From assembly GCA_000004695.1 (NCBI GenBank), contig CM000152.2:1792001-1856000 (forward strand): a stretch of DNA of 64,000 nucleotides, in the 5' to 3' direction. The DNA comes from Dictyostelium discoideum. Lineage: Eukaryota. Below are positions 22,829-26,189 of this stretch, one piece after another. The notes beneath the pieces were generated by a model, which ran no database searches, was not told where the DNA came from, and was given only the letters and a program-made list of their open reading frames with translations. Position 1 is the stretch's first letter. Every line of letters starts with the position of its first letter. The position numbers were made by a program, and so were the translations under genes.

Positions 22829-25800
22829 TTAAATCGAACTTTGACTGCCACCATAGATATCAGTTTCAGATGTTGTTGCAGTTGTTAAATAATCATCACT
22901 TTTTAAACTTCCATTTACTGATGAATCAACATCATTCTCTCTACCTATTGGAACTACAGGTGAATCTATTGAACCTTTTTGAGGATTAGGTTGTTGTACA
23001 TTAATTGGAGAAGTAGCACTACTACTACTTGCATGATATTTATTACTACTACTACCACCACCACCACTTCCACGGCTATGATGATGGTGATGACTATTTT
23101 CATTTGAAATACTCTTTCTACGAGCGCCACCTGATGGTCTATTTAAAATTTTTTTCTTTTTCTTTATTAATTGTAATACTGGGCTACCTAAAACATTATT
23201 TCTAATTGAATCTACCCATTTATTTGCCTCTTCAATAGTTGGAGCTTTCAATAAATATTTAGAATGTTGACCTTCAACTGGACCAGTTGGCATTAATTTA
23301 ACAGATTTAATAGTTCCAACTGTTGTATCTTCAATTTCAAATATTAAATCTGATAATAATGTAACTTTTAAACCTTCTAATGGTATAATTACTTTTGGAT
23401 GGTCCTCCTATTAATAATAATAATAATAATAATAATAATAATAATAATAATAATAATAATAATAATAATAATAATAATAATAATAATAATAATAATAAAA
23501 ATAATAATTATAATGAAATAGTTAATATTATTAATAAAAAATTAAATTATAATAAAATTTAATAAAACTTACATCTTTTTCATTTTTAAAATAATATAAA
23601 CAATTATTTTTTAAAACGAACCATCTTCTTTGCCAAGTTTTTTCATTTGAAGTCATTTTATTTAACCAACCTTTAATTAAAGCATTTGAAAATAAGGAAT
23701 CACTATCCATCTTTAATTCACAATTAATTATTCTATCGTATAAACTCTCTAAATATTCAATTGGTAAATCTTTTTTACCCTTGAAACCAGTATTATTTTG
23801 TACAAATGATCTCTTTGTCATTTTATTCTTTATCGCTGGATTATGAGCATCGGTATTTAATAAGATTAATGAAAATGCCAATAAATATGCTGTATCTGAA
23901 TCTGGAAATGTACCCGGATTATCTCTATGATATTTTCTTGCAAATGATTCCATAATTCTATCAATTTTTTGTGCTTCTCCTGGTAATCTAAATTTAGATA
24001 AAAATTCTCTTAATGATTCATCAAATTTTTTCGATTGGAAATTATATTGATCAACAAATTGTTGTAAAATATTAATATTAATTGGGTTACTAGTTTTTTT
24101 TTTAAAAAAAAAAAAAAAAAAAAAAAAAAAATAAATAAATAAATAAATAATAAATTATTAGTATATTAAATTTTTAATTAATTTAATATTATTATAAAAT
24201 TATTTAATAATAATTTAATAATTATATTATAAATAAAATAAATAACTTACTTTTCACCTAAATAATCACCAACTTTAACTTTATTTAAACCATCAACATT
24301 ATATAAAAATGTTACAATATCTCTATATGGAGTTTGTGATAATAAATTATTTTCTTGAATAAATTGAATACCCTATATATGTATATATAAAAATAATAAT
24401 AATTAAAAATTAGTTATTTATTAAAAAATAAATAATAATCATAATTCATTATGAAAATAATAATAATAATAATAATTACAGTTTCAGGGTTCTTATTAAA
24501 CTTTCTCATAGCAATTCTTAATGGTTCTTCAGGTTGAATTATTCCATATTGTGGTTTAATAGTTAATTTATCCAAAGTATCAATATCTATATCACTTGAT
24601 GTATCTTTTATATTCTCTTCATCTACTAATTCTTTTAAAACCACTGACTCTACTGATCTAATTTCTTTTATAAGAGGTTTAATCCATAATATACAGGTTA
24701 CCTTTTTTTTTTTTTTTTTTTTTTTTTTTGATAAAAAGTTATTATTAATAAAAGAAAAAAAAAAAAAAAAAAAAAAAATAATTAAAAACTTACAGTCCAT
24801 ATAATAAATAAAATTGCAATTCCAACACATAGAATTAAACTTGCCCACCAATTTGAAACTACTAATGGATCTTTATAGTATGATAATAGTCCAATTGCAA
24901 CTGTAACTAAAATAATTAATCCTAATGAAAAATATTTCCAATAATAAAACTAAAAGTAAAATAATATTAGATTTTGTTTTGTTTTGTTTTTTTTTTTTCT
25001 TTATAAAAAATAATAAAATACTTACTATTTTTAAAAGTACAGGTCTAATTTTTAATAAAGAAATAAAACCAATTATTGAAAAAACTAAAAATAAAGAACC
25101 AAAACAACCACAAATTAACAAAGTTACATGATGTCTAATGATACCAATTACCAATGGATATAATGTACCTAATCCAAAAATTATTTCAAATAAAACAACG
25201 ATTATACAAGGAAATACTGATGGCTTTTTTGTATGTCTTCCAATTTTTGATGTTAATTTTGGTGAAAAATTTGATGGATCATCAATATTTGTTCCATTTT
25301 TTGTTTTATTATTATTATTACTATTATCATTCTTTTTATTCTTATTATTATTATTATTATTATTATTATTATTATTATTATTATTATTATTATTATTATT
25401 ATTATTATTATTATTATTATTATTATTATTATTATTATTATTATTATTATTATTATTATTATTATTATTATTATCATTCTTATCTTCACCATCTTCAGTC
25501 TCTGTATTGTAAAATGATTGTTTTTGTTCTAAATTTGTCGAAAGCATTATTGGTCTTTTTATTGTTACTGTTTCAGGTGTAAAAGGTACTTGAACTAATC
25601 CCGTTGGACTAAAACTATTTGATGATGATGCTATCGAATTATTATCTAATAAATAACTACTACCTCTTGTTAATGGATTATATTGTTGTGTTTTCTCTTT
25701 TCCTATTGATAAAATATTGTTATTACTATCATCATTAATATTATCATTATTATTATTATTATTATTATTATTATTATTATTATTATTATTATTATTATTA

Positions 25801-26189
25801 TTATTATTATTACTATTACTATTATTATTAATATTGTCTTGACTATTAATATTATTTTTACTATTATTTTTTTCAATATTATCACTTTCTTCTTCTAAAT
25901 TTTTTATATTATTTGGATTATCAAAACTTTTATTAGTATTAGAATTTAAATTTAATTGTCCTTCATTATTTCTTTCACCGCTGTTTAATATATTGCTATT
26001 AACAATAATAGTGTCTTTTGCAATACGATTATTTTCTATTAGAATGTCATGAATACTATTACTATTTTTCATACTACTATTATTACTACTACCAGTATTC
26101 AAATTTATATTTAAATTATTTTGATTATTATTTTCATTTTCTTCAAGTAGAATTGTGTTGGTTGAAGAACTTTGGTTATTGGTTTCCAT
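22829..26189 (-). CDS. Cytohesin-like ArfGEF: N-terminal Asn-rich region, four hydrophobic (predicted TM) helices, Sec7 domain and PH domain. 6 exons: join(22829..23407,23573..24089,24251..24372,24480..24701,24794..24949,25026..26189), about 919 aa.
   Basis: ATG at 26189. Donors ATA|gtaagt (25025), ACT|gtaagt (24793), ACT|gtaatt (24479), GAAAA|gtaagt (24250, phase 2) and GAT|gtaagt (23572). Acceptors ttttag|TTTTAT (24949), aaaaag|GTAACC (24701), atatatag|GGTATT (24372), ctag|TAACCC (24089) and aatag|GAGGAC (23407). Total 2760 nt, in frame. Sec7 motifs: [63 protein letters not shown]: [34 protein letters not shown]. Confidence 0.6.

Follow-up and report, generated by a model that had tools for sequence, protein, structure and literature searches.

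The locus analysed here lies on the minus strand of a 64,000-nucleotide (nt) stretch of Dictyostelium discoideum DNA, referred to as the window, and raises the question of whether a cytohesin-type guanine nucleotide exchange factor for Arf GTPases (ArfGEF) can be built into a membrane rather than recruited to it. The membrane recruitment of ArfGEFs is central to where Arf becomes active, and to our knowledge all well-studied ArfGEFs of the Sec7 family are peripheral. A first-pass annotation of the window proposed that six exons join a Sec7-PH unit in frame to a module of four hydrophobic, transmembrane (TM)-like helices. From the comparison of sequences and from structure models, we consider it highly probable that the locus is one gene for a polytopic, membrane-anchored cytohesin-type ArfGEF, with a cytosolic Sec7-PH unit, a four-TM anchor and a PH/polybasic switch.

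Splicing of the six exons by script yields an in-frame coding sequence (CDS) of 2760 nt, running from 26189 to 22829 and encoding 919 amino acids (aa) and a stop codon (Table 1). The CDS is intact, and the proposed junction of a 388-codon and a 52-codon exon to the Sec7-PH exons is therefore upheld; the four hydrophobic peptides quoted in the first-pass annotation were all found exactly as given. The six exons stand as proposed, but the donor GTAAGT, attributed to all introns, is present in four of the five only, intron 3 having GTAATT. The frames match only with the proposed splices, as had been stated, since read-through of intron 1 (76 nt) shifts the frame and meets a stop at 24873 (open reading frame (ORF) 24873..26189), and read-through of intron 2 (92 nt) meets a stop three codons on (IIWT followed by VSF and the stop). 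The GC content is 3-12% in the introns vs 23-38% in the exons; intron 5, inside the PH domain, consists mostly of an ATT microsatellite of ~100 nt and has 3% GC. Because the splice model gives the same length of 919 aa, and the organism and the domain order are also equal, the window gene appears to be the published DDB_G0279241 (DDB0233591). A protein from another D. discoideum strain is 100% identical over a 523-aa query, and the annotations of two other strains, P0001 (850 aa) and P0121 (858 aa), share the same junctions.

The combination of TM helices with Sec7 and PH has already been described, in 2010 and in 2013; the architecture is unusual, as the first-pass annotation claimed, but not new. 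Table 1 of Shina et al. 2010 lists DDB0233591/DDB_G0279241 with 919 aa and the domains “MFS, Sec7, PH”, along with the orthologues PPL_10293 (686 aa; TM, Sec7, PH) and DFA_11559 (678 aa; DUF2339, Sec7, PH) (PMC2826412). Mueller et al. 2013, in whose abstract the gene is also mentioned, ascribe to DDB_G0279241 “four predicted transmembrane domains” (PMC3737031). In both papers the gene is named as an annotation, not as the protein studied. The word “transmembrane” is absent from the 2019 pan-eukaryotic survey of Sec7 proteins, in which no such subfamily is named (Pipaliya et al. 2019), a 2021 survey of dictyostelid GTPase regulators gives an established biological role for only two ArfGEFs, and a literature search for any other transmembrane Sec7 protein found none. 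The additions made here are small: the spread of the architecture to Myxogastria and a variosean, orthologues outside Dictyostelia being absent from the published accounts, its single origin, and the orphan character of the TM module.

The fusion recurs in other species. In D. purpureum, all five introns are located at identical codons and phases (lengths 73, 73, 72, 65 and 67 nt), and the position of intron 1 is also kept in H. album. The search for orthologues in other dictyostelids, which had been suggested as a check, recovered the order TM, Sec7, PH in at least seven of them, and the same order is present in Physarum and Soliformovum. Proteins spanning 94-98% of the TM+Sec7+PH query were found in P. 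violaceum, H. album and A. subglobosum, and T. lacteum shows this order in the full alignment; P0128 (678 aa) equals the published DFA_11559 in length, and P0006 has 686 aa, as PPL_10293. All three parts are encoded in a single uninterrupted ORF in the Physarum transcript P0016 and in TRINITY transcripts of Soliformovum irregulare (P0022 and its isoforms). Several Logan and JGI contigs of ~2 kb also display this order, and the Logan contig L002 (2038 nt) contains an uninterrupted 589-aa TM+Sec7+PH ORF with short, mRNA-like flanks. The match at 919 aa, the orthologues, the conserved introns and the mRNA-like contigs jointly support the original proposal of one gene encoding an integral-membrane Sec7-PH ArfGEF and provide strong indirect evidence that the fusion is real.

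That TM3 is missing from PPL_10293, the model deposited for H. album (686 aa), is due solely to a mis-called intron (L004 1981-2059, GL290994.1). A GTAAGT donor at 1981 together with a TAATAG acceptor defines a 79-nt intron, the removal of which joins KPIYI to YYFWKIISILGMIFISIAIG, that is, TM3; the corrected intron sits at the same position as in the window gene. The same TM3 gap is seen in P0128, a protein of the C. fasciculata length (678 aa), where it probably reflects the same intron mis-call.

A neighbour-joining (NJ) tree was built for the Sec7-PH region (308 columns, 31 sequences, 30 bootstraps). The TM-bearing proteins form one clade in 30/30 bootstraps, which includes neither the animal cytohesins nor the ankyrin-cytohesins of Amoebozoa. 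In the list of the 120 best Sec7-PH homologues, multiple hydrophobic segments were found only in this amoebozoan family. The fusion is old, Dictyostelia, Myxogastria and a variosean having it in common, and it arose once. It is well supported by these comparisons that the TM-cytohesins represent an ancient ArfGEF subfamily, which would have arisen by one fusion before the split of Dictyostelia, Myxogastria and the variosean and is missing from the 2019 Sec7 classification.

Several features that characterize a cytohesin-type ArfGEF are present, namely Sec7, the Glu finger, a PH domain adjoining Sec7 and, towards the C-terminus, a helix followed by polybasic residues. The match to PF01369 scores 228.9 bits vs a cutoff of 22 and covers profile positions 5-182 of 183. 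The Glu-finger motif, encoded at nt 23957-23992, is identical to that of cytohesin and includes the catalytic Glu593; this residue, those flanking it and the N-T-D-x-H-N-P of motif 2 (LNTDxHNP) are invariant in 17/17 family members aligned. The PH domain begins 13 residues past Sec7 and scores 66 bits vs a cutoff of 25.1 for PF00169. The best solved relative is cytohesin-3/Grp1 (E 1.5e-75), with an alignment that extends from the start of Sec7 through PH to DPFYDMLATRKRR; residues 802-817 are aligned with DPFYDMLATRKRRIANK of cytohesin-3, its autoinhibitory helix and polybasic region, and are conserved in all orthologues. Within the PH domain, the same residues as in cytohesin-3 are found for the Lys of GWLxK, the Arg of RRW, the Tyr of CLYYF, the Lys of IKxxK and the His of EGxH, and the residue before IIPLE is Lys here vs Arg in cytohesin-3. 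Together with three positions that differ (see below), these are the residues that we take, from the Grp1 structures, to contact phosphoinositides. Upstream of Sec7 there is no N-terminal coiled coil, as has been reported for Dictyostelium cytohesins (PMC3737031, PMC2826412); this region consists instead of a disordered stretch rich in Asn, the four TM helices and the acidic linker.

Four hydrophobic segments precede the acidic linker. Kyte-Doolittle means over 19 residues peak at 2.1-2.8 across them, and the orthologues give four matching peaks, which argues that these are not chance runs. The proposed four-helix hydrophobic module is thus retained with its four helices but not with the end of helix 4 at the boundary of exon 2, because seven residues of this helix (VTCILWI) come from exon 3. 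Lys and Arg are distributed as 4 in the N-terminal flank, 4 in loop 2-3 and 3 in the C-terminal flank (11 in total) vs 1 each in loops 1-2 and 3-4 (2 in total). Given this distribution, the positive-inside rule predicts an N-in/C-in topology, with Sec7-PH facing the cytosol, the side demanded by its function. AlphaFold2 (AF2) was applied to the near-identical strain protein P0001 and its substrings, with an alignment of orthologues. The TM-only model consists of four antiparallel helices (mean confidence by predicted local distance difference test (pLDDT) 83.8; predicted template modelling score (pTM) 0.73), and the full-length model contains the same four helices at pLDDT 79-90. In both models, TM4 runs on as a single helix of ~47 residues into the cytosol; its cytosolic extension comprises aa 448-468 and is followed by the acidic disordered linker (aa 469-~494). 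Ahead of TM3, the Trp of the W-K motif shows no variation; TM1 and TM2 contain near-invariant Gly residues, and a Pro after TM4 is conserved. TM1, which also has a Pro kink, contains a polar residue, E335 in the window protein, which is Glu in most Dictyostelia and in myxogastrids, Gln in P0128 and His in the Soliformovum group. The identity of the TM module is 59-73% among group-4 dictyostelids, and it can be aligned as far as the myxogastrids.

The origin of this module was sought with several kinds of comparison. When 1.84 billion representative proteins were searched exhaustively with an HMMER profile of the module, 10 matches were obtained at E<=0.001: seven full-length proteins of the family, two short fragments consistent with truncated members, and the marginal P0131. 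The latter (179 aa, E 5.6e-4) is, besides the fragments, the sole match without Sec7-PH. Its four hydrophobic segments are accompanied by the W-K motif and by cysteines in the loops resembling those of the Soliformovum group; it could be a relative that occurs on its own, or else its gene model is truncated. The D. discoideum TM module matched no Pfam family, and the CD20 family (PF04103) was matched by two of 14 family members (best E 0.025), the D. discoideum sequence not among them. Foldseek returned nothing at E<=0.001 with the TM module, its top match, Fc-epsilon-RI beta (E 0.11, template modelling (TM-)score 0.49), being not significant, and a profile search of the PDB was also without significant matches. 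The TM3-TM4 hairpin (window 24681-24934, minus strand) matched V-ATPase subunit e, itself a two-TM hairpin, in the PDB at a non-significant E of 0.09; the shared pattern W..S..I....F.MW.I......HPL possibly reflects composition. From these sequence searches and models, we conclude that the TM module is best described as an orphan four-pass bundle of a general MS4A/tetraspanin shape, with no demonstrable homology.

Several specific labels were considered and rejected. A weak Pfam match to Sec62 (E 3.9e-4, 20.7 bits vs a cutoff of 27.8) spans a poly-Asn tract and TM1-2 and was set aside as a composition artefact. The published MFS label is at odds with four hydrophobic segments vs twelve TM helices arranged as two halves of six, and no Pfam MFS family was matched even at E<=1; DUF2339, assigned to the D. 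fasciculatum orthologue, was not reproduced with the current Pfam. A tetraspanin identity was discarded because the large second extracellular loop and the CCG motif are absent, loop 3-4 having 8 residues, and PF00335 is not matched.

One alternative is that the locus comprises two genes or has an internal promoter, the hydrophobic exons making up a small membrane-protein gene of their own and the Sec7-PH exons being expressed independently as a soluble cytohesin, or, in a weaker form, that an additional soluble isoform is made. An in-frame Met is indeed present at the start of Sec7 (M504, in RIAMRKF), and P0020 and the truncated models P0004 and P0008 contain Sec7-PH with none or part of the TM module. 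However, M504 is the only Met near this start and is Ile or Val in most orthologues, so that the refuting case named in the first-pass annotation, a separate Sec7-PH gene with its own ATG, is unsupported. Moreover, introns of 76 and 92 nt, in phase 0 and at positions conserved in D. purpureum, leave much too little room for an intergenic promoter region of Dictyostelium, exon 2 lacks a separate start codon context, the fusion is present in uninterrupted transcripts from three other lineages, and the TM module almost never occurs without Sec7-PH among its 10 matches in the proteins searched. The two-gene alternative is accordingly rated as very unlikely on this comparative evidence. It is just as unlikely that the hydrophobic helices do not span the bilayer and instead pack into a soluble or monotopic bundle, for example an anchor of the lipid-droplet or hairpin type, or make up an oligomer core: bilayer-spanning segments typically have lengths and Kyte-Doolittle means like those seen here (20-26 residues, up to 2.8), the charges clearly follow the positive-inside rule, the best-ranked membrane fold matches (Fc-epsilon-RI beta, CD20, tetraspanins) are four-pass N-in/C-in proteins, and four TM domains were also called by the published prediction (PMC3737031).

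A further possibility refines the anchored-enzyme reading instead of replacing it. The TM module may be a regulatory or sensing unit that binds a partner, oligomerises or, via the Glu/Gln/His of TM1, senses an ion, pH or lipid and relays its state along the rigid TM4 extension to an autoinhibited Sec7-PH cassette, making the protein a receptor-like ArfGEF. The polar residue kept inside TM1, the invariant W-K and small-residue motifs, the conserved Pro after TM4, the long single TM4 helix of both models and a degree of conservation greater than anchoring needs are in line with this idea, which we nevertheless judge unlikely: neither Pfam nor the PDB profile search nor Foldseek (best E 0.11) yielded a ligand, a partner or a homologous sensor family, and the disordered acidic linker before Sec7 speaks against rigid mechanical coupling. 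More doubtful again is the wider proposal that TM-cytohesins are receptor-like Arf activators, an ancient subfamily whose four-TM module senses or binds a partner and thereby gates an autoinhibited exchange factor; its sensing part is speculation. The preferred reading of one gene for a membrane-anchored cytohesin also has several observations weighing against it. The exact 919-aa sequence is absent from the protein collection searched, and the transcript-level evidence of fusion comes from lineages other than D. discoideum. The arrangement of the TM module relative to Sec7-PH is not confident in AF2 (full-length pTM 0.33). Three of the PH positions taken to contact the phosphoinositide in Grp1 differ (Arg to Asn and Lys to Gln in the beta1-beta2 region, and Gln for the Asn before His); as most of the others are kept, lipid binding by the PH domain is likely, but its specificity is uncertain. 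Finally, the A. subglobosum protein P0020 (394 aa), which has Sec7-PH without TM helices, is nested in the TM clade as sister to the TM form of the same species. Unless its gene model is truncated, P0020 would be a recent duplicate from which the anchor has disappeared, showing that the cassette can occur anchor-free.

The Asn-rich N-terminal region (aa 1-~312) is 40% Asn, with poly-Asn tracts at aa 127-148 and 240-282, and has an AF2 pLDDT <50; conserved islands, including FSPKL, recur in D. purpureum and P. violaceum and show the region to be coding. The two tracts correspond to AAT repeats on the minus strand at window 25344-25472 (43 residues) and 25746-25811 (22 residues) and are the main reason why the window protein is longer than those of the other strains (919 vs 850 and 858 aa), an in-frame repeat-length polymorphism. 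Codon 360 (window 25110-25112, minus strand) encodes Cys (TGT) in the conserved YGxYG motif of TM2, a position taken by Tyr or Phe in P0001, P0121 and almost every orthologue, and a second strain difference is K576, vs Asn; C360 and K576 could each be a strain polymorphism or a laboratory-strain mutation. At the other end, the orthologues of other dictyostelids terminate in a conserved acidic-aromatic motif, SKQTE[ND]EFLF. No missing 3' exon for KQTExEFLF was found in any frame of window 22829-22900 or of the 3' flank to 22450, and the motif appears to have been lost in D. discoideum; SxKSDDYL, upstream of the C-terminal end, is retained.

A convergent ORF of 216 aa (window 21839-22489, plus strand) neighbours the gene at the 3' end, the two stops being ~340 nt apart. 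Its product matches no Pfam family at E<=0.001; it contains an extended poly-Gln stretch and an (EEN)n repeat and, at its C-terminus, a motif resembling a zinc finger, CxxC...CxxC. Two further features of the window are listed at the end of Table 1.

Table 1. Coordinates of the ArfGEF gene, of the segments of its predicted product and of other features in the window.
Feature	Position (nt)	Strand	Basis or remark
Whole CDS, 6 exons and 5 introns	22829..26189	-	Splice model; matches published 919 aa
Exon 1, 1164 nt, 388 codons	25026..26189	-	Asn-rich, mostly disordered N-terminus, then TM1 and TM2
Intron 1, 76 nt, GTAAGT..AG, phase 0	24950..25025	-	Position conserved in D. purpureum and H. album
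Exon 2, 156 nt, 52 codons	24794..24949	-	Invariant W-K motif, TM3, short outer loop, most of TM4
Intron 2, 92 nt, GTAAGT..AG, phase 0, splits TM4	24702..24793	-	Position conserved in D. purpureum
Exon 3	24480..24701	-	Last 7 residues of TM4, TM4 extension, acidic linker, Sec7 start
Intron 3, 107 nt, GT..AG, donor GTAATT, interrupts Sec7	24373-24479	-	Script splicing
Exon 4	24251..24372	-	Script splicing
Intron 4, 161 nt, GT..AG, donor GTAAGT, interrupts Sec7	24090-24250	-	Script splicing
Exon 5	23573..24089	-	Script splicing
Intron 5, 165 nt, GT..AG, donor GTAAGT, interrupts PH	23408-23572	-	Script splicing
Exon 6	22829..23407	-	Script splicing
TM1, aa 328-351	25137..25208	-	Hydropathy, alignment; AF2 helix broken at Pro
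TM2, aa 355-379, conserved YGxYG/FG small-residue motif	25053..25127	-	Hydropathy, alignment
TM3, aa 394-413	24875-24934	-	Hydropathy, alignment
TM4, aa 422-447	24850 to 24681, interrupted by intron 2	-	Hydropathy, alignment
Sec7 domain, aa 501-679	23717..24521	-	Pfam PF01369, E 4.5e-68
PH domain, aa 693-797	23198..23677	-	Pfam PF00169, E 4.9e-18; aligned to Grp1 PH
C-terminal helix and polybasic stretch, aa 802-817	23138..23185	-	Cytohesin-3 alignment, AF2 helix
Low-complexity C-terminal tail (His/Gly/Ser-rich) and stop codon	22829..23137	-	Spliced translation, AF2
tRNA-Val(TAC) gene	15995-16070	+	
976-aa ORF, sub-threshold TPR matches	17065-19995	+	

Comparison with known systems places the protein among the cytohesins by its catalytic part and apart from them by its anchor. 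Its Sec7-PH tandem is 45-47% identical to those of the metazoan cytohesins (cytohesin-3/Grp1, ARNO and cytohesin-1), with which it shares the Glu-finger motif, most of the lipid-contacting basic PH residues and a C-terminal helix and polybasic region alignable to Grp1; unlike them, it has a ~310-aa Asn-rich region and the four-TM bundle where they have an N-terminal coiled coil, ends in an extended tail of low complexity and is predicted to be integral rather than peripheral. The Dictyostelium paralogues SecG (an ankyrin-repeat cytohesin, ARCC) and Sec7 (DDB_G0272486) likewise have a lineage-specific N-terminal module instead of the coiled coil, but both are soluble proteins whose recruitment relies on PH and lipid, GFP-Sec7 being cytosolic and at the plasma membrane (PMC3737031), and the ankyrin forms lie outside the TM clade. 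In contrast to the ARCC and TBS subfamilies (Pipaliya et al. 2019), the window protein has no ankyrin or TBC match in Pfam. Among four-pass families, MS4A (Fc-epsilon-RI beta, CD20), tetraspanins and MARVEL give no significant sequence or fold score (Foldseek E >=0.11). Sec12, an integral-membrane exchange factor for the Arf-family GTPase Sar1 that confines activation to one organelle, resembles the window protein by analogy only, as an Arf-family exchange factor embedded in a membrane; the two are not homologous, Sec12 being a beta-propeller with a single C-terminal anchor and without Sec7 or PH.

In the proposed mechanism of the membrane-anchored cytohesin, the four helices would cross the membrane with both ends of the bundle cytosolic, so that the Sec7-PH unit would face the cytosol, tethered by the helical extension of TM4 and the flexible acidic linker (~30-45 residues). 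The bundle would substitute for the coiled coil of animal cytohesins and keep the enzyme on a single membrane system at all times. In such an anchored enzyme, the main role of the PH domain and the polybasic C-terminus would be that of a cytohesin-style autoinhibitory switch rather than recruitment. The switch would be released by local phosphoinositides and/or GTP-bound Arf-family proteins, and Arf may thereby be activated only within those patches of the resident membrane that have a particular lipid content. Macropinocytosis and chemotaxis of Dictyostelium are driven by PIP3 patches, and its genes are easily knocked out. A cytohesin that is embedded in the membrane and yet keeps the PH domain and the autoinhibitory tail would be a natural experiment in which the recruiting role of the PH/polybasic elements may be separated from their allosteric role.

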